DNA from: Patescibacteria group bacterium
Lineage (GTDB): Bacteria > Patescibacteriota > Microgenomatia > UBA1400 > PJMF01
NCBI GenBank assembly: GCA_049322575.1
Contig: JBMORQ010000026.1
Span: forward strand, 1 to 50,745
Length of the DNA: 50,745 bases
Direction of reading: 5' to 3'
Of the stretch, positions 1 through 32,530 are shown one piece after another. The stretch's first letter is position 1; each line of letters begins with the position of its first letter. Position numbers and translations under genes: made by a program. Below the pieces are notes generated by a model. It ran no database searches. It had not been told where the DNA came from and saw only the letters and a list, made by a program, of their open reading frames with translations.

Positions 1-207
1 TTGGACAACCTATATTGTATGGTCTAGAGACTAGATTTTGTTCATTCTGAGGAAAATATCATAAAAAAGGATTGATACAAGCAAGAGAAATACCAATTTT
101 AGCAACCCATTTGTTTTACATTAGCCACAGATTCGCTTTTCTTTCGTTAAGAAAATGACAACAATCATGCTGCTAAAACATCACCCAAACAAAGAACGAA
201 AAAGAAT

Positions 208-846
208 TTAGGCGAAAATCTGACTAACAGCCATTGGCAACATAGCTGGACTGGAAACTTGACTGGCAGGTTGTTTCTTCTGTTTTGCGAACGCCACAGA
301 GCTGTTAAGCCCCCATTCTACCGCCACCATCTTAACGCCAACTTTATTTGCTGCCTCCAAATCCCGAACCTCATCTCCCACGTATATTACCTGATCTTTG
401 GTTAGTTTATGCTTTTTTATGACCGACAGTAGCATTTTATCCTTACCAAAAAGGGACTTCTCAGAATAGACAAAATCAAAAAATTCCAAATTGTACAGTT
501 CAAGAAAGCGTACAATGTTGTCTCGCCTGTTAGAACTGACAATTCCTAACGAGTAATTAGTTGCAAGCTGGGTTAAAACCTCAGAAATATCGTCAATCGG
601 CCGTAATTTTGCTAATCGTTTACCAATTTCCTGGTTAATGCGCAGAGCCATTCTGGGTACCTGCCACCAGGGAATTTTAAGTTTCTTCAGCACGCTCTTT
701 AAACCTAAATCGCGAAGATTCAACAACTCCGATTCACTTAGCACTTCATAACCAAACTCTGGAGCAATTATCTCAAGTAACTCTCCAACCATTTCCCAAG
801 TGTTTGCAATCGTTCCGTCAAAGTCAAAAATCACTGTCTTCCTCAT
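208..846 (-). CDS. HAD-superfamily hydrolase (phosphoglycolate phosphatase-like)
   Basis: Motif I FDFDGT, motif II VSSN, motif IV YVGDEVRD. Confidence 0.88.
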   Translation of the reverse strand: MRKTVIFDFDGTIANTWEMVGELLEIIAPEFGYEVLSESELLNLRDLGLKSVLKKLKIPWWQVPRMALRINQEIGKRLAKLRPIDDISEVLTQLATNYSLGIVSSNRRDNIVRFLELYNLEFFDFVYSEKSLFGKDKMLLSVIKKHKLTKDQVIYVGDEVRDLEAANKVGVKMVAVEWGLNSSVAFAKQKKQPASQVSSPAMLPMAVSQIFA

Positions 847-18883: not shown

Positions 18884-18961
18884 ATTTTCCTTTTTGATTC
18901 GAGTTTTTTGCCTCTGGTTCAGCGTAAGTTTTTCCCTTACACCGCATTTCTCATTTGTCTG

Positions 18962-19035
18962 AGCCATCTCAGGGATTCGAACCCTGGACCTACAGTTTAC
19001 AAAACTGTCGCTCTAACCAACTGAGCTAAGATGGC
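18962..19035 (-). tRNA. tRNA-Thr(TGT)
   Basis: GCCATCT/AGATGGC acceptor, ACAGT-TTTGTAA-ACTGT. Confidence 0.96.
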
Positions 19036-19126
19036 AATTTTACACTGACTTTACTTGTTTTTCTAGAGCTGCTTCTGATGTATTTCAGAACAACCAGCCA
19101 CAAATAAAGATTTGCTTCATCACCAG

Positions 19127-19208
19127 TGCCAGGAGCAGGATTCGAACCTACGAAGGCTATGCCAGCAGTTTTACAGACTGCCCTCGTTGACCACTTGAGT
19201 ATCCTGGC
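19127..19208 (-). tRNA. tRNA-Tyr(GTA)
   Basis: GCCAGGA/TCCTGGC acceptor, GCAGT-CTGTAAA-ACTGC, long variable arm. Confidence 0.96.
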
Positions 19209-19327
19209 TTATCTTCTTCCCGCCAATTTGTCGTTTCTTGTACCAACAGACTGTGTACTAATACTAATTAATATAACAAAATATTAAATACACGAACAAA
19301 TGAGCGATCACCAACTGTCAGAAACTG

Positions 19328-19399
19328 AGCCGAAGATGGGAATTGAACCCATGACCCCCATCTTACCAAGATGGTGCTCTACCCCTGAGCTACTTCGGC
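19328..19399 (-). tRNA. tRNA-Thr(GGT)
   Basis: GCCGAAG/CTTCGGC acceptor, CCATC-TTGGTAA-GATGG. Confidence 0.96.
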
Positions 19400-26093: not shown

Positions 26094-26516
26094 ATGGCAA
26101 AAAAAGTTAAACAAATCTTAAAATTGAATTTACCAGCCGGATCAGCTACCCCAGCTCCTCCAGTCGGTCCTATTTTAGGTCAAGCTGGTATTAACATGAT
26201 GGATTTTTTGAAGCAATATAATGACGCCACTAAAGATCAACGTGGTCAAGTTATCCCCGCTTTAATTACTGTCTACGAAGATCGTTCTTTTACCTACGTT
26301 CTTAAGCTACCACCAGTTTCAGACATGATTAAGCAAACCCTGAAACTCAAACAAGGCAGCGCCAAGACAAAATCGGATGTGGTGGGCAAGTTGACCCAAG
26401 ACCAAGTTCGAGAAATCGCAGAGAAGAAATTACCAGACCTCAACACCACTAACCTGGATGCGGCGATTAAGTCCGTTACCGGCACCGCCAAAAGCATGGG
26501 AGTGGAAGTTATATAG
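26094..26516 (+). CDS. rplK: 50S ribosomal protein L11
   Basis: ATPAPPVGPILGQ, YEDRSF, GTAKSMG. Confidence 0.98.
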   Translation: MAKKVKQILKLNLPAGSATPAPPVGPILGQAGINMMDFLKQYNDATKDQRGQVIPALITVYEDRSFTYVLKLPPVSDMIKQTLKLKQGSAKTKSDVVGKLTQDQVREIAEKKLPDLNTTNLDAAIKSVTGTAKSMGVEVI

Positions 26517-26569
26517 TAACGAAATTGCCCCCTGGGCAAGCCGATCGGGATGGTCGGCAAGAGGAAAAT

Positions 26570-27298
26570 ATGGCAAAAAGTAGAAATGTCGACATGTCGG
26601 CAAAAGTTGATGAAATTAAAATTGTAGCTGCCCCCGAAGATAGCGCTGAAACACAGCCAACGGCCGAAGCTGAAGTCGCTGAAGGTAGTAAAGTCAACAA
26701 GAAAGCCAAACAAGGTCGTAGCGCCAGATATCAAGCAGTTCGCGCTCAAGTTGACAGAACCCGCAAATACGATTTAGCAACCGCTGTTGAGATGGTCAAA
26801 AAGCTCTCATACAGCAAGTTTAAAGGTTCTGTTGAGGCTGCCCTCGTCGTAAAAGAAGTTGGCTTTTCAACTAGCGTCAGCTTCCCCCACTCAACAGGTA
26901 AATCGATTAAAGTTGCCATCGTTGATGATCAAATCTTGCAAGATATTGAAGACGGCAAAATCGACTTTGATGTTTTGGTTTCCAAACCAGAGTACATGCC
27001 AAAATTGGCTAAATTTGCTAAAGTTCTAGGTCCAAAAGGCTTAATGCCAAACCCAAAGAACGGTACTTTGACCACTAATCCAGAGTTAAAGGCTAAAGAG
27101 TTGCAATCTGGCAAGATGACAATCAAAACTGAGAAAAAAGCTCCATTAATTAACCTATCAGTCGGTAAAATTTCCATGGACGACAAAGAATTAATTGAAA
27201 ACCTAGAGGCTTTACTCAAAGCGGTTAAAGGCAAACTTGTTCGTCTGTCTATTTCTGCAACCATGGGTCCTGGAATTAAAGTTGCTTTCGAGCAGTAA
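26570..27298 (+). CDS. rplA: 50S ribosomal protein L1
   Basis: LGPKGLMPNPKNGT, ATMGPGIK; GAGG SD before ATG 26570. Confidence 0.96.
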   Translation: MAKSRNVDMSAKVDEIKIVAAPEDSAETQPTAEAEVAEGSKVNKKAKQGRSARYQAVRAQVDRTRKYDLATAVEMVKKLSYSKFKGSVEAALVVKEVGFSTSVSFPHSTGKSIKVAIVDDQILQDIEDGKIDFDVLVSKPEYMPKLAKFAKVLGPKGLMPNPKNGTLTTNPELKAKELQSGKMTIKTEKKAPLINLSVGKISMDDKELIENLEALLKAVKGKLVRLSISATMGPGIKVAFEQ

Positions 27299-27322
27299 AC
27301 TTAAAAATTCATTTGTTTAGGG

Positions 27323-27352
27323 AAAAAAACCGGCCTGTTAAGGCCGGTTTTT
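27323..27352. terminator. Bidirectional intrinsic terminator (rplA / thrS)
   Basis: A7-CCGGCCT-GTTA-AGGCCGG-T5. Confidence 0.88.
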
Positions 27353-27388
27353 GATTTCATTTACAAACAATGTCAGAAAAGCAACCAA

Positions 27389-29224
27389 TTACTTTTTATT
27401 TTCAACATCTTCCTCAAGTCTTTTTGCGAAATCAGCAACGCTCATAACTTCTTGTTCTTCTTGGTCTCGATGACGGACGCTCACCTGTTTAAGCTCTACT
27501 TCCTTATCACCCAAAACCAACATGTATGGCACTTTTTCCAGTTGCGCCTGGCGAATCTTGGCTGAAAGACGCTCGCTTCTGTCATCAATTTCAACGCGCA
27601 AGCCCTTTGCCTCCAACATTTGACGAACTTCTTGAGCAAAAGCTTGATGACGATCGGCGATTGGTAGCAGTTTTACTTGTACCGGTGACAACCAAACCGG
27701 GAATTTTCCAGCATAATGCTCGATCAAAATCGAGATATAGCGCTCAATTGATCCCATGATGGCCGCGTGGATCATTACCACTCGCTCTTTTTCACCCTGC
27801 TCATTTATGCAGATTAAATCAAACCGCTCTGGCATCTGCATATCAAGCTGGTTAGTGGCAACCTGCCACTCGCGACCGAGTGAATCGTTAGCCATAAAAT
27901 CGAGCTTGGGACCATAAAAAGCTGCCTCTCCTGGAGCCTCCTCTACGGTTATGCCGCGCTCGCGAGCCAACTCTCGTAGTTGGTTTTCTGCCATATCCCA
28001 ATCTTCGCGACTTCCAAGATATTTTTCTGGATGAGCAGGATCACTCAAGGATAAACGAACTTTGAGTTTAAAGCCAACCGCGCCATAAAACTCTTCGATG
28101 ATGTCCCAAATCTTGAGCATCTCTTCTTTAACTTGCGATTTGCGACAAAAAACATGAGCATCGTCTTGCGTAATTGAGCGGACACGCGACAAACCGGCCA
28201 ATTCACCGGTTTGTTCGTCACGATACACCATGGTGGTATTGGCGTAACGCTGTGGCATTTCTTTATAGCTGGTGGGCTTACGAGCAAAGATTTGAGTATG
28301 ATGTGGGCAGTTCATTGGCTTCATCACAAATTCATGTCCCTCACGAGTTGTAATACGAAAAAGTTCGTCACCAAATTTTGCCCAATGACCACTTTTTTCG
28401 TAGAGATCTTTCTTGGTGATGTGCGGGATTTCCACCTTAACGTAACCACGTGCCTGACGAAGCTGCCAGACGAAATTATCCAAGATATTGCGCATAACCG
28501 TGCCGCGAGGTGTCCATAGCGGTAACCCAGGACCTACCAGTTCTGAGAAAGTGAACAGATCCAGCTCACGACCTAGCTTCTTATGATCGCGCTTTTTGGC
28601 TTCTTCAAGCTGATAGACATAGGCATCAAGTTCTGCCTTGCTGGCAAAAGCAGTTCCGTAGATGCGAGTTAACATCTTATTTTTCTCGTCACCATGCCAA
28701 TAGGCACCGGCCAAAGACAGCAGTTTAAAATGCTTGACCTCACCCGTGGAGACAACGTGGGGACCAGCACAGAGATCAACCATTGAGCCGGCTTTCTGTG
28801 GCTCACCTGTCCAATAAACGGATACTTCTTCTCCCTTGGCTTCGATCTCATCTAACCATTCCTGTTTGTACGGATTGCCGGCAAAAAGTTTTCGACCTTC
28901 TTCAACAGAGATCATTTGACGAGTCACAGGCAAATTCTTGGCGACTATCTCGGACATGCGTTTTTCGAGAGCGGCAAAGTCCGATTCAGAAATCGACACA
29001 GCCTCCTGACCATCTGGAGAGTTGTCGAAGTCGCAGTAAAAGCCTTCTTCGGTGGCTGGACCCATAGCTAAATGGACACCTGGGAAAAGCTCTTTAACTG
29101 CTTGCTGCAAGATATGCTCTGCGGTATGTCTGATTTTGTGCAGTTGGGATTTTTCTGCGTCAAGTCTATCCTGCTTTGAAGACGATGACATTGACAGTTC
29201 TGACAATGATTTTTTATTTGACAT
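27389..29224 (-). CDS. thrS: Threonine--tRNA ligase
   Basis: RHTAEH, DLCAGPH, RDHKKLG, KPMNCPHH, AAFYGPK, GSIER. Confidence 0.98.
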   Translation of the reverse strand: MSNKKSLSELSMSSSSKQDRLDAEKSQLHKIRHTAEHILQQAVKELFPGVHLAMGPATEEGFYCDFDNSPDGQEAVSISESDFAALEKRMSEIVAKNLPVTRQMISVEEGRKLFAGNPYKQEWLDEIEAKGEEVSVYWTGEPQKAGSMVDLCAGPHVVSTGEVKHFKLLSLAGAYWHGDEKNKMLTRIYGTAFASKAELDAYVYQLEEAKKRDHKKLGRELDLFTFSELVGPGLPLWTPRGTVMRNILDNFVWQLRQARGYVKVEIPHITKKDLYEKSGHWAKFGDELFRITTREGHEFVMKPMNCPHHTQIFARKPTSYKEMPQRYANTTMVYRDEQTGELAGLSRVRSITQDDAHVFCRKSQVKEEMLKIWDIIEEFYGAVGFKLKVRLSLSDPAHPEKYLGSREDWDMAENQLRELARERGITVEEAPGEAAFYGPKLDFMANDSLGREWQVATNQLDMQMPERFDLICINEQGEKERVVMIHAAIMGSIERYISILIEHYAGKFPVWLSPVQVKLLPIADRHQAFAQEVRQMLEAKGLRVEIDDRSERLSAKIRQAQLEKVPYMLVLGDKEVELKQVSVRHRDQEEQEVMSVADFAKRLEEDVENKK

Positions 29225-29294
29225 GTTTTTTACTCCTTAATATTTACTTTTTGATTTTATTACTTTTTAAGGTATTTTTGAGTTGTGTTTCTAC

Positions 29295-30581
29295 TCAGGG
29301 TCTTTTTTTGCTGGTAAATGAGGTATATTTGCTGGTCATCCCAGCAGTAGATATAGTAGTTCTGCCGGTTTTCTTTAAACCACCAACGGAGAAAACAGAG
29401 AAAATTGACAGTAATTTGCTAAATCTCAAGATTGGTTCAAAAACACTCACTAAGGCAATAGCCGCCGCAATAAGCGTTAAAGACATCGACCAATCAGCCA
29501 TACGTCCCAGAACGGGATTGAGAATTACCAAACTCAGACGCTGAAACATCGAAACTGAGGAAATGACCGTGGCACGCTGCTGCGACGGAATGTGTGGTTG
29601 CATTAGCGCCGAAAAATAGGTTTGACGTGTCAAGCCAAACCCACCAGCCAAAACCACAAATGCGGTAATTGTGAAAAAGTTGGTACTAATTGCCGGCAAA
29701 ATAAAACCAACTACTACCAAGGCGGCACTTAGCTGGGCGTAAGAAAGAGGTAGTTTAAGCCATATGAGTAGTCTTTCAAACGGCCTAAACATATTTAAAA
29801 TTGCGATTTCCACCAAAACCAAGCCCGCATGAAAAAAACCAAATTGCCAAATCGGCACACTGATTTTTTGTAGCAATAGTTGATAAAACCATATTACAAA
29901 ATAAGCCGCCGAATGCACTAAAATCGAGTCCAATGCCAATCGTCGCAGCGAACGATGCTTGGCAAAATAACGCACTCCCTCGACAGCAATTTTTAAATAG
30001 CGTTGCGACTCTTTTGGACCAGATGAAATCTTTGGCTCACGCAGTGTAAATGCCACCGCGGCAGCCAAAGCAAAAGGAATTGCCGAAAATTGCATAGGAG
30101 CCACCACCCCAAACCACTTGGCCACCTGACTACCAAGAAGTGAGCCAATCATGATACCGGTAAAATGAAATGAGCGCATCCTTGCCAAGATTTCTTTAGC
30201 CTGACTCTCTCTCCCCTGCTCTTTAAGCGTGTCATAGAGCCAAGCCTCATTTGCCCCGGAGATTAAGGAAATGCCCACTGCAAAAACCATTTCCGCTACT
30301 AAGAAAAAACCAATTTCAGGCTGTCTGGTGTAGATAAATGTTGCTAATACCCCAGCCAAACTTCCCAAGCCAATCGAAACCCTACGTCCAAAACGGTCAG
30401 CGATTGCCCCTGTTGGCACTTCTAAAAGAAAAATCCAAAGCATAAACCAAGACTGGATTAACTGCATTTGAAAAACCGAGATCCCTCCCCAATCTTTAAA
30501 AAATGGCACCAAAACAGCTCCGAACAAAACCATGTCGTGCAAAAACGAAAAAAGATAAAAACGGTTTATTTGATTTTTCAT
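29295..30581 (-). CDS. MFS transporter
   Basis: LEVPTGAIADRFGRR motif A, SGANEAWLYDTL, about 12 TM segments. Confidence 0.9.
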   Translation of the reverse strand: MKNQINRFYLFSFLHDMVLFGAVLVPFFKDWGGISVFQMQLIQSWFMLWIFLLEVPTGAIADRFGRRVSIGLGSLAGVLATFIYTRQPEIGFFLVAEMVFAVGISLISGANEAWLYDTLKEQGRESQAKEILARMRSFHFTGIMIGSLLGSQVAKWFGVVAPMQFSAIPFALAAAVAFTLREPKISSGPKESQRYLKIAVEGVRYFAKHRSLRRLALDSILVHSAAYFVIWFYQLLLQKISVPIWQFGFFHAGLVLVEIAILNMFRPFERLLIWLKLPLSYAQLSAALVVVGFILPAISTNFFTITAFVVLAGGFGLTRQTYFSALMQPHIPSQQRATVISSVSMFQRLSLVILNPVLGRMADWSMSLTLIAAAIALVSVFEPILRFSKLLSIFSVFSVGGLKKTGRTTISTAGMTSKYTSFTSKKRP

Positions 30582-30732
30582 TGTTTGTGATTGTTAGATT
30601 AGTGTCAGATTTCTTACAATTGCGTAAGATTGTCCTGATGAAGCATCTGTTTTGTTGATTAATTGGTCGGTTGATCGATCGGCGTTTAATGTAATTTGTA
30701 AGCCAACCGCTCATCCACAGCCAAAAAACTAC

Positions 30733-30786
30733 AAAAAAACCCCGCTTGTCGGGGTTGTTGTTTTTGTCCAGCAGCACAACCAACCC
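30733..30786 (-). terminator. Attenuator terminator / antiterminator
   Basis: Terminator AACCCCG-ACAAG-CGGGGTT followed by a T run; upstream GGGGTTGGTTG can pair with its 5' arm CAACAACCCC. Confidence 0.8.
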
Positions 30787-30834
30787 CTAAAAAGGAGTGA
30801 CGGTAGTGTTGGTAGTTGGACAAATCGATTTCAT
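30787..30834 (-). CDS. Thr-rich leader peptide MKSICPTTNTTVTPF
   Basis: 15 codons with 5 Thr (ACT ACC AAC ACT ACC GTC ACT) immediately before antiterminator/terminator, upstream of MFS-thrS. Confidence 0.78.
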   Translation of the reverse strand: MKSICPTTNTTVTPF

Positions 30835-30910
30835 CACCGGTTATTGTAACACAGCTGTAAAAGCTGTTGGTAGAAATTGTCTGAAAATTCCGCCGAACAA
30901 ATATACTTGT

Positions 30911-31324
30911 CTATGAATAGATGGCAAGGTAACCATATTTTGGGATAAGCACCAAATATCGGTTGGTTGCAGTTCTCACACCTTCATCTCCCTCATAAAT
31001 TTGACCAGCATATGATGCTATACCATCGGTATGAGTTTCTTCACATTTAAAGAAAATATTTGTAGAGATACCTTCTTTGGAAACTTGGACAAATTTAATC
31101 TTGAACAGTTTTTCTCTACTATTGTTTGATAATTGTGGAGTGCCTTCAAAAGTTTTACATGAATAACTAACATGCAAAGAGAAAAAATAATTCTGTGCAA
31201 TTTTTCTCAAAACAGCATCAGCAAATTTTGGCGCATTTTCTGCCCCACTCCTCAGTGGATCATGATATTGCTCATTAGTCCAAGAGGGATATCGAAATGA
31301 TAACTCTCCAGTTGTTCCGCTCAT
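30911..31324 (-). CDS. Hypothetical protein
   Basis: 137-aa ORF with consensus promoter upstream; motif similarity to the next ORF. Confidence 0.6.
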   Translation of the reverse strand: MSGTTGELSFRYPSWTNEQYHDPLRSGAENAPKFADAVLRKIAQNYFFSLHVSYSCKTFEGTPQLSNNSREKLFKIKFVQVSKEGISTNIFFKCEETHTDGIASYAGQIYEGDEGVRTATNRYLVLIPKYGYLAIYS

Positions 31325-31472
31325 ATTGATAAACAGTTCTCTCTAATCTGTTCTCTACAGGACTCATGACGAACTACCTGAACGTCAAGGACAGAAAACT
31401 GTTTATGACCAACAAGGGCAGGAGTTTTCCTTAGAAACCAGTCGTTGGGAAAAGCTTGTTTATCTGGAACGT

Positions 31473-31502
31473 ATTATACTATGTATGTAATGGATATGTC
31501 AA
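31473..31502 (-). promoter_or_regulatory. Consensus sigma70 promoter
   Basis: TTGACA-18 nt-TATAAT on minus strand. Confidence 0.7.
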
Positions 31503-31584
31503 AATGCTCTGTCTTCATACCAATTTTGAAAAATTCTCTCTCAGTCTTCAATTTGTGAGACCCAGGAGATATATCAAAAATAGC

Positions 31585-32082
31585 TTAATCATTTGGGCAA
31601 TAAATAGCACAATAATTGTCTTTTAGATTATTTGATTCTGCTGGAATATAAATGAGTATTTTAGGAGTTTGAATCGTTCTTCCAATCGATCTCGGCATAT
31701 TCATAGCCTTTTCTCCCTTCATCATTTTTTTAATCTTCTCAAAAAATCCAGTACTAGAAGTTTCGATTTTTGTTGGTTCCTCTTCTTTTACTACTCGGCC
31801 AGCGAAAAAAGTATCTCCCTTCTCGTTTTCACAGCGTGTAATCTCAAAAAGAATTATGTGTGTCCCATCTTTATCGGAAATACTCAATTGGGCGATGTTG
31901 TTGACCTCATCCAGCAGCACAATTTTCGGGACAGAACCAAAGAATTCTCGATGATATTGTGACGGATCTCTGACTAAACAAGCAAAATACTCATCTGCCG
32001 TTTGTGGGATACGCGTTATCTGATCCCTCTGGGGCAAACGATTAACTGAACCAGCTTCCCTATAAGTAACTGCATTTGTCAT
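31585..32082 (-). CDS. Hypothetical protein
   Basis: 165-aa ORF. Confidence 0.6.
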   Translation of the reverse strand: MTNAVTYREAGSVNRLPQRDQITRIPQTADEYFACLVRDPSQYHREFFGSVPKIVLLDEVNNIAQLSISDKDGTHIILFEITRCENEKGDTFFAGRVVKEEEPTKIETSSTGFFEKIKKMMKGEKAMNMPRSIGRTIQTPKILIYIPAESNNLKDNYCAIYCPND

Positions 32083-32125
32083 ATCGTTTAAAAAAAATGA
32101 CTATAAAAAAAACTCAAAAAAATTC

Positions 32126-32530
32126 TTATTTGCCAAAAAACACCTTGCTGAGTCTGCTTGAGATTTTACTAACAAGACTAGGTTCTTTTAATTGAAATCC
32201 ATACTTATTAATTAGTGCATCTCTGATTCCACAGGCATTGGTCACTCTCTTCAATTTTTCATATAAGATCTTCGAGTTTTCACCACCAGAATGAACTCTT
32301 GAATTGGCAATGCCTCGACTCCTATTTTCTATGATGTGACCTGTAAAGGCTTTTTCACAATCTTGAATAGCTGCGATCACAGCTTCCGGATAAATTTTCA
32401 TACCACTACTTGGAGATGTTAAATGAACATTATTTCTTTCCAATAATTTCAGTGCTTTGACCAATTGATCAACGTCAAATCGATCAGCCTGGACAATAAC
32501 TTCCAATCCGGACCGTTCTTGATCTGTCAT
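32126..32530 (-). CDS. Hypothetical protein
   Basis: 134-aa ORF, co-oriented with neighbours. Confidence 0.55.
   Translation of the reverse strand: MTDQERSGLEVIVQADRFDVDQLVKALKLLERNNVHLTSPSSGMKIYPEAVIAAIQDCEKAFTGHIIENRSRGIANSRVHSGGENSKILYEKLKRVTNACGIRDALINKYGFQLKEPSLVSKISSRLSKVFFGK

Follow-up and report, generated by a model that had tools for sequence, protein, structure and literature searches.

Among aminoacyl-tRNA synthetase (aaRS) genes, E. coli pheST is an established case of leader-peptide attenuation, and trpS and leuS of Streptomyces are predicted ones, according to the accessible part of PMC1262725. A leader of this layout is described here on the minus strand of a 50,745-nucleotide (nt) contig from a Patescibacteria group bacterium (JBMORQ010000026.1, hereafter the window). 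A short upstream open reading frame (uORF) rich in threonine codons and an intrinsic terminator precede a gene for a major facilitator superfamily (MFS) transporter, which is followed by thrS. We consider it very probable (roughly 80%) that this leader attenuates transcription in the classical, ribosome-mediated way, with a leader peptide whose translation gauges how much charged tRNA-Thr is available. Sequence comparison confirmed the attenuator and its homology to a leader that stands just upstream of thrS in relatives. The mechanism is the textbook one of the E. coli pheM-pheST type; Patescibacteria are a new host group for such attenuators.

With E. coli pheM-pheST, the window element shares a short uORF of cognate codons, alternative hairpins and an intrinsic terminator before an aaRS gene, and the presumed signal is again the charged cognate tRNA read by a translating ribosome. 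The window element differs in its amino acid and gene (threonine, thrS), in its phylum, in an apparently leaderless uORF without a Shine-Dalgarno (SD) motif and in its compact size of ~105 nt. The direct counterpart of pheM-pheST in this genome is the peptide MLNSQKFTTFFFFSLI with its terminator before pheS. The E. coli thrL leader (RF00506) likewise has a leader peptide rich in Thr codons, the 1:2 / 2:3 / 3:4 pairing logic and threonine sensing through translation. It governs the biosynthesis genes thrABC and also uses Ile codons. The window element, in contrast, would govern a synthetase, in an organism without detectable thrC or homoserine dehydrogenase, and it does not match RF00506.

The T-box of Firmicutes thrS (RF00230) has the same target gene, the same tRNA-Thr charging signal and the same terminator/antiterminator output. 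However, a T-box binds uncharged tRNA directly and without translation, whereas the window leader has a predicted translated uORF and no RF00230 match. In E. coli, threonyl-tRNA synthetase (ThrRS) represses its own mRNA by binding a tRNA-like operator at the ribosome-binding site, and neither a uORF nor a terminator is involved. Regulation of thrS through the 5′ leader RNA is common to both, but nothing like a protein-bound operator was seen in the window. The available part of PMC2965389 mentions this translational operator, predicts leader-peptide attenuation for hisS paralogues of bacilli, and describes swaps between T-boxes and leader peptides between lineages for other genes. In Streptomyces lividans TK24, leader peptides are predicted before alaS, thrS, trpS and leuS, and its thrL is reported to be leaderless, to carry just two Thr codons and to lack a clear U-rich terminator (accessible part of PMC8079986). 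The window resembles S. lividans in having a leader peptide before thrS itself, a probably leaderless transcript and several aaRS genes with cognate leaders. The Patescibacteria element differs in its runs of 4–8 Thr codons, its canonical terminator and its conservation across many genera.

The available part of a 2024 review of Patescibacteria states that mechanisms of gene regulation in the phylum are virtually unknown, and riboswitches are named in that part only as a prospective tool (PMC11665869). Our literature search found no paper on leader-peptide attenuators in Patescibacteria or the candidate phyla radiation, supplementary lists being outside its reach. Patescibacteria cannot make most amino acids, and matching tRNA charging to supply is therefore central to their dependent lifestyle. 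The comparisons below suggest that one order of the phylum uses a translation-coupled attenuator at the synthetase gene itself, and likewise at at least three other synthetase genes.

The source genome comprises 1.11 Mb in 42 contigs and is 94.8% complete, and the window is its contig C26. The leader reads GTG ATG AAA TCG ATT TGT CCA ACT ACC AAC ACT ACC GTC ACT CCT TTT TAG on the minus strand, with an in-frame GTG one codon 5′ of the uORF ATG and Thr codons at positions 7, 8, 10, 11 and 13. The segment GGGGTTGGTTG lies directly 3′ of the uORF (30789-30777 including the stop codon), and the distance from the start codon to the T run is ~105 nt. The 176-nt leader folds with an energy of −52.5 kcal/mol (z = −2.99), a stability reached by 3 of 200 shuffles. 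In the minimum-energy fold, the Thr-codon region is paired with the G/U-rich segment after the stop codon and the terminator is formed. The same 1:2 helix, in which the Thr region pairs with the antiterminator strand, recurred when the leaders of five relatives were folded to minimum energy (6 sequences with the window). With the uORF masked and the 3′ arm of the terminator omitted, GGGGUUG.GUUG paired with CAAC.AACCCC at −14.7 kcal/mol, compared with −11.1 kcal/mol for the terminator hairpin alone. A sequence-only reading of this DNA had proposed the Thr-rich uORF, the alternative pairings, the terminator and the succession of MFS gene and thrS, 70 nt apart. All of them were found in place, and folding bore out the two competing structures. 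No Rfam family reached its gathering score at 26500-32500, and neither Thr_leader (RF00506) nor T-box (RF00230) matched there even at E ≤ 10. A match to asX2 was rejected, as it scored 24.9 bits against 70 and spanned the terminator hairpin only.

Conservation was examined in 129 thrS loci of relatives (29 + 100) with genome sizes of 0.5–1.6 Mb; 123 of these loci have at least 300 nt upstream. The strict rule called for a uORF of at most 35 amino acids with a start codon and at least 4 Thr in 7 codons, followed 5–80 nt after its stop by a terminator, within 450 nt of thrS. Such a leader was present in 75/123 loci (77/123 with a detector variant). The reverse complement of the same regions gave 1/123, the next 450 nt upstream 1/118, and the same rule with any other amino acid at most 4/123 (Leu). 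A profile search added 10 full-length leaders among the loci negative under the strict rule, bringing the count to 85/123; since the profile was built from the positives, only these hits among the negatives are new information. The strict rule was positive in 74/108 loci of the window's own family and in 1 of the 15 loci (of 123) that belong to other families of the order, with families assigned by hand. The distance from the terminator end to thrS was 14–341 nt in every positive relative.

A profile of 73 thrS leaders from relatives, from which the window was excluded, found its best match in the source genome at 30844-30732 (−), over the full model length (E = 4e-12). Its second match was the leader before pheS. 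The window peptide is similar to the thrS leader MKSLIVITTNTTTL of relative G022. We take the window element to be the thrS leader ancestral to this order of Patescibacteria. The thrS leaders of relatives carry 4–8 Thr codons. ACT and ACC account for 86% (356/412) of the leader Thr codons, compared with 64% in the long open reading frames (ORFs) of this genome, and the tRNA-Thr anticodons of the genome are UGU, GGU and CGU.

The competing pairings were examined by an alignment-free duplex test on 74 distinct leaders, in which each strand was paired with its own partner or with permuted partners (5000 permutations). For the post-stop segment, the mean pairing energy was −11.70 kcal/mol with the cognate terminator arm, compared with −9.86 ± 0.26 for permuted partners; for the Thr block with its own post-stop segment it was −12.73 kcal/mol, compared with −11.68 ± 0.25. 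In both cases 0/5000 permutations were as low, figures which count as support and not as probabilities, the sequences being related and not independent. Shuffled post-stop segments gave −8.26 and −8.97. RNAalifold returned 5 weak pairs on 12 sequences and 0 consensus pairs on 58 leaders aligned with MAFFT, and no helices came out of a column-by-column search either. This poor yield arises because MAFFT alignments miss the register of length-variable stems, and the co-variation therefore rests on the duplex test.

The geometry of the leaders is also that expected under the classical model. The uORFs are 12–31 codons long (mode 14–15), and the gap from stop codon to terminator is 21–44 nt (74 leaders). 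Counted from the first base of the stop codon, the antiterminator strand covers +1 to +12 (medians; interquartile range of the 5′ edge −1 to +3), and in the window +1 to +9. The first Thr codon lies 25.5 nt and the last 9 nt before the stop (medians). Because the strand begins at the stop codon, a ribosome at that codon would cover it; given the distances of the Thr codons, a ribosome stalled on the early ones would leave it free. In energy, the antiterminator averages −13.0 and the terminator −11.8 over the 74 leaders.

The extended −10 box TGTTACAAT ahead of the uORF is the sole TGNTANNNT match on the minus strand at 27161-30851. A −10-like box (at least 5/6 TATAAT positions) ending 6–12 nt before the uORF start was found in 51/75 leaders, 22 of these 51 with a TG extension, and at the same spacing before 10/75 thrS starts. 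An SD-like motif precedes 1/75 uORFs, compared with 28/75 thrS starts. The position of the box and the scarcity of SD motifs imply that the thrS-leader uORFs appear to be leaderless or near-leaderless. A sigma-70-like site at 30927-30900 (TTGCCA-16-TATATT) could yield a longer 5′ end.

The proposed mechanism is as follows. Transcription would start at the extended −10 box, and the 15-codon leader would be translated from a leaderless or near-leaderless RNA. When Thr-tRNA is plentiful, the ribosome would reach the TAG and cover the G-rich segment, so that the terminator at 30756-30733 would form and transcription would end. If the leader is not translated, the Thr-codon block would pair with the G-rich segment and termination would follow likewise. 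When Thr-tRNA is scarce, the ribosome would stall on the ACT/ACC codons 9–27 nt before the stop and the G-rich segment would stay free. It could then pair with the 5′ arm of the terminator as an antiterminator, and RNA polymerase would continue into the MFS gene and thrS. This corresponds to the thrL-type attenuation keyed to Thr codons and tied to thrS that the sequence-only reading had put forward, and both the leaders of relatives and the co-variation agree with it.

Neither thrC nor homoserine dehydrogenase was found in the 94.8% complete genome, and both searches were positive in 14/14 control genomes. This fits threonine auxotrophy, which had been thought likely from the window alone. 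In an auxotroph, the switch cannot raise synthesis; it could raise only the enzyme that captures scarce threonine for translation. On a more far-reaching reading, which we regard as unlikely, the apparently leaderless cognate leaders of thrS, pheS, hisS and trpS would be direct genomic evidence of transcription-translation coupling in Patescibacteria. The compact switch of ~105 nt could also be put to use as a naturally inducible part in genetic tools under construction for this group.

Table 1. Coordinates of the attenuator, its neighbouring genes and the leaders before other synthetase genes (positions in the window, except those given with G, C and L handles for genome, contig and locus).
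Feature	Position	Strand	Remarks
Extended −10 promoter box TGTTACAAT	30843..30851	(−)	8 nt before uORF ATG
Leader peptide uORF MKSICPTTNTTVTPF + TAG stop, 15 codons	30787..30834	(−)	5 Thr in 7 codons
Region 1, Thr codon block ACT ACC AAC ACT ACC GTC ACT	30796..30816	(−)	putative sensor; pairs with region 2
Region 2, stop codon + GGGGTTGGTTGTGCTGCTGG	30767..30789	(−)	pairs with region 1 or with region 3 (the latter = antiterminator)
Region 3, CAACAACCCCG	30750..30760	(−)	antiterminator partner; overlaps terminator 5′ arm
Attenuator terminator AACCCCG-ACAAG-CGGGGTT + T7 run	30733..30756	(−)	7 pairs, 5 G-C, loop 5; −11.1 kcal/mol
MFS_1 transporter gene, 428 aa	29295..30581	(−)	PF07690, E 4e-21; between leader and thrS
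thrS, threonine--tRNA ligase, 611 aa	27389..29224	(−)	TIGR00418, 673.5 bits vs cut-off 383.65
Two-way terminator, 12-bp stem	27325..27352	(.)	closes MFS-thrS unit and converging rplA gene
rplA (L1 gene)	26525-27298	(+)	converges on MFS-thrS unit
pheS: Phe leader MLNSQKFTTFFFFSLI	G000:C27:109222-109328, L066 ~123-229	(+)	70 nt before pheS
hisS: uORF MSQPETITTTFQFVHHRHYSIA + terminator	G000:C27:185640-185759, L067 ~141-260	(+)	His-His-Arg-His, ends ...FVHHRHYSIA; 122 nt before hisS
trpS: uORF MSKKCFAFDACWRTLG	G000:C24, L063 ~1130-1245	(−)	single Trp codon; 93 nt before trpS
proS: sub-threshold T-box	G000:C27:7818-7999, L065:219-400		RF00230, 30.5 bits vs gathering 93, E 0.0024

The MFS gene starts 151 nt 3′ of the attenuator terminator without an SD-like motif, and an A+T-rich gap of 70 nt separates its stop codon from the thrS start. 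No full-length leader more than 450 nt upstream of thrS was found in the 129 loci of relatives, most of which have 1.4–2.2 kb upstream; in 29 of the 129, a leader as far from thrS as in the window (~1.6 kb) would be barely within reach. Among the genomes examined, the MFS gene stands between leader and thrS only in this one, the single genome of its genus in the set. It would thus have been inserted between the ancestral leader and thrS in this genome alone, and is therefore most likely under the same control. This insertion is an example of a gene falling under an existing switch, and it warns against deriving function from operon position alone.

The MFS protein matches PF07690 over residues 11-353 (75.8 bits, cut-off 33.4), and its structural neighbours in the Atlas are all generic MFS_1. 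The nearest NCBIfam models are efflux pumps, namely TetA(P), Tet(40), HP1165 and CmlA, all well under their cut-offs. An efflux assignment of the TetA(P)/Tet(40) type was not adopted, because the scores (58.5 vs 750 and 46.1 vs 800 bits) show a distant resemblance only. No importer family was among the NCBIfam or Pfam matches. A recent foreign origin was also considered and rejected, as the composition shows no sign of it: GC and GC at third codon positions (GC3) are 0.433 and 0.420 for the MFS gene and 0.464 and 0.446 for thrS, and the window GC is 0.421. Relatives of the MFS protein came from 8 loci on genome contigs and 26 on metagenome contigs, and none of them exceeded 50% identity over the main segment. 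In the 37 loci of MFS relatives, thrS was never neighbouring and a Thr-rich uORF was absent. The expectation of conserved Thr-rich uORFs was thus borne out upstream of thrS homologues (75/123) and failed upstream of MFS homologues (0/37).

The sequence-only reading had also proposed that thrS and the transporter are co-induced, and that the MFS protein imports threonine or Thr-peptides. For co-induction, the link of thrS to the leader held, and co-regulation of the MFS gene with thrS via the leader on a single transcript is plausible. The import claim found no support: the linkage to thrS occurs in this genome only, it is absent from all 37 MFS-relative loci, and the nearest families are efflux pumps. 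A role of the MFS protein in threonine uptake is thus unsupported. We regard it as unlikely that the transporter was recruited into a threonine-starvation response, either importing threonine or Thr-peptides or exporting a compound that blocks ThrRS; the export option is considered because the MFS relatives are efflux-like. In the case of export, any fall in charged tRNA-Thr, by starvation or by an inhibitor, would raise both the target enzyme and the pump. With recruitment in either direction, the attenuator would reveal what part an orphan transporter plays in the physiology of an uncultured, ultrasmall bacterium.

Several MFS relatives (L174, L179, L186, L188, L195, L200 and L202) have their own conserved, unrelated 5′ element of uORF and terminator, ~60–260 nt before the MFS start. 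It consists of a TATAAT-like box, a 20–33-codon uORF without an amino-acid run, and AACCAGC/GCTGGTT repeats in a 1-2-3-4 layout with the terminator AACCAGC..GCTGGTTTTTTT. Except for tRNAs, Rfam gave nothing before the MFS relatives at E ≤ 0.05. This element may be a stalling-type attenuator. The MFS relative of G032 (45% identical; L002 ~1300-1460, G032:C14) is preceded by the Ile/Thr-rich uORF MNAVIINTITICPAVLEKGLRGGGFVGWRT and a terminator, and the G032 thrS lies 8 kb away behind a T-box-like leader.

Several observations weigh against threonine-dependent attenuation of thrS in the window, besides the relatedness of the leaders and the missing consensus structure given above. The Thr codons of the window leader are fewer and more interrupted (5, at most two consecutive) than in most relatives, which have runs of 5–8. 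Equilibrium folds of the full leader retain the terminator even with a simulated stalled ribosome, and the switch would therefore have to work kinetically, while the RNA is still being made, as the classical model has it. No leader was detectable in 38/123 thrS loci of relatives; the element is therefore dispensable. The 151-nt interval between terminator and MFS gene and the A+T-rich gap before thrS could harbour promoters invisible to the scans, and thrS owns a strong AAGGAG SD. One rival explanation is that the leader controls the MFS gene only, or is a leftover of little effect, and that thrS has escaped threonine control, being transcribed for the most part from a promoter of its own, either in the 70-nt gap or near the MFS stop codon. 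The strong SD, the A+T-rich gap and the relatives in which thrS manages without a leader all favour it, as does a promoter-like site inside the MFS gene (TTGAAA-16-TAAACT, 29779-29752). However, that site scores 9 of 12, and promoter-like sites are below chance in total (5 found, 7.3 ± 2.7 expected). The terminator scan gave no convincing terminator separating MFS and thrS: the one terminator-like site reported is weak, has a 5-bp stem and lies inside the MFS gene, and such sites are at chance level overall (8 found, 5.2 ± 2.1 expected). TGNTANNNT also has no minus-strand match from 27161 to 30842, a weak argument because the motif is not enriched window-wide (119 matches, 111.5 ± 10.5 expected). 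The lack of an inner terminator and of an inner extended −10 motif makes one MFS-thrS transcript plausible. The leader itself is intact: its uORF is open, either pairing can form, and the T7 run is present. On balance, expression of thrS mainly from its own promoter seems quite improbable.

It is also conceivable that the attenuator arrived together with the MFS gene and responds to any stalling of ribosomes, such as a translation inhibitor would cause, in the manner of leader peptides before efflux or resistance genes, the Thr codons being incidental. The uORF-terminator elements of MFS relatives lack an amino-acid run and the nearest named MFS families (TetA(P), Tet(40), CmlA) are efflux pumps, as this explanation would have it; but the efflux-family scores are far under the cut-off. 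Moreover, the thrS-leader profile matches the window over its full length, whereas its best match among the elements of MFS relatives has E = 0.04 and covers terminators only. The window peptide resembles the G022 thrS leader, and the window terminator differs from the AACCAGC..GCTGGTT type. We thus consider an origin with the MFS gene very improbable. The remaining explanation is that the hairpin merely terminates the upstream gene (30911-31324), in whose long 3′ untranslated region the Thr-rich uORF would have arisen by chance. The terminator does lie 155 nt past the stop of that gene on the same strand, and AACCCCG...CGGGGTT-type terminators are common in this genome. However, a promoter box stands between the upstream gene and the uORF, the homology with relatives' thrS leaders extends over the full length, and in 75–85 of 123 relatives the element tracks thrS and not the upstream gene. 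When the source genome was scanned for uORF-terminator pairs with at least 4 identical residues in 7 codons, 18 cases were found, and the present site, with 5 Thr, was the only Thr-rich one. Terminating the upstream gene and attenuating are, in addition, mutually compatible roles. A chance uORF before a simple terminator is hence barely credible, and attenuation by a Thr-reading ribosome remains the preferred explanation.

The range of the leader in the order was surveyed with R1, a sequence-only model of the leader that was used since alignments gave no consensus structure. At E ≤ 1e-3, R1 matched 76 of 151 genomes from the order; among the weaker matches, many took in the terminator part only. 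Matches near full length at E < 1e-6 occurred in 38/151 genomes, 17 of them outside the window's own family, in five other families. Nine such loci were inspected. A Thr run was present in 9/9, thrS adjoined in 7, and the other two were short contigs. Outside the order, R1 matched 3/148 genomes of the phylum at E ≤ 1e-5, with thrS adjacency seen in 1/3.

T-box-like leaders stand before thrS in some sister families, where 3 of the 5 loci scanned matched RF00230 below its gathering score of 93 (44.3, 39.1 and 32.4 bits; E from 6.6e-7 to 7.8e-4). Two loci, L039 and L042, looked T-box-like by eye and were not counted, RF00230 having no match there at E ≤ 0.1. Given the T-box-like leaders of these sister families, thrS would be a clear-cut example from nature of one sensing system giving way to a different one. 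The far-reaching, unlikely reading given above also has leader peptides taking the place of T-boxes in this order.

Other synthetase genes of the source genome were found to have leaders of the same kind. Intergenic terminators with a gene behind them numbered 27 in a scan of this genome, and among the 10 downstream proteins named, 5 were aaRS (trpS, proS, pheS, hisS and lysS). The check for cognate leaders at other aaRS genes, which the sequence-only reading had proposed, was thus positive for pheS, hisS and trpS, each of which has a post-stop segment complementary to its own terminator arm. Before pheS, the segment GGCGGG is complementary to an arm of the terminator AACCCCGCC..GGCGGGGTTTTT; before trpS, TAG is followed by GGGAG, which is complementary to an arm of GCTCCC..GGGAGTTTTTTT. 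The three kinds of leader also occur in relatives. Phe-run leaders precede pheS in 4/29 loci (L210, L219, L226, L227), His-run leaders precede hisS in 6/29 (L247, L256, L257, L258, L259, L263), and Trp-containing leaders precede trpS in 4/29, three of them with WW (L270, L271, L290). Ahead of proS, a sub-threshold T-box was found, with GGTGGTACCGCG just before the start. T-boxes and leader peptides thus seem to operate side by side in one genome.

Of the genome's three tRNA-Thr genes, those with anticodons UGU and GGU lie in the window at 18961-19399 (−), ~8 kb from thrS. Upstream of the leader, at 30911-32530, three minus-strand ORFs encode 137, 165 and 134 aa without a Pfam match, and the 137-aa product (30911-31324) has no NCBIfam match either. 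Their GC3 of 0.25–0.31 is far below that of thrS, the MFS gene and the window, and they may be foreign or fast-evolving. The ThrRS of genera g11 and g17 (for example G010:C1:813227-815194 and G016:C12:30422-32224) matched the query in two pieces within one frame of ~680–720 aa, which suggests an insertion of ~80–100 residues after the N-terminal domain.

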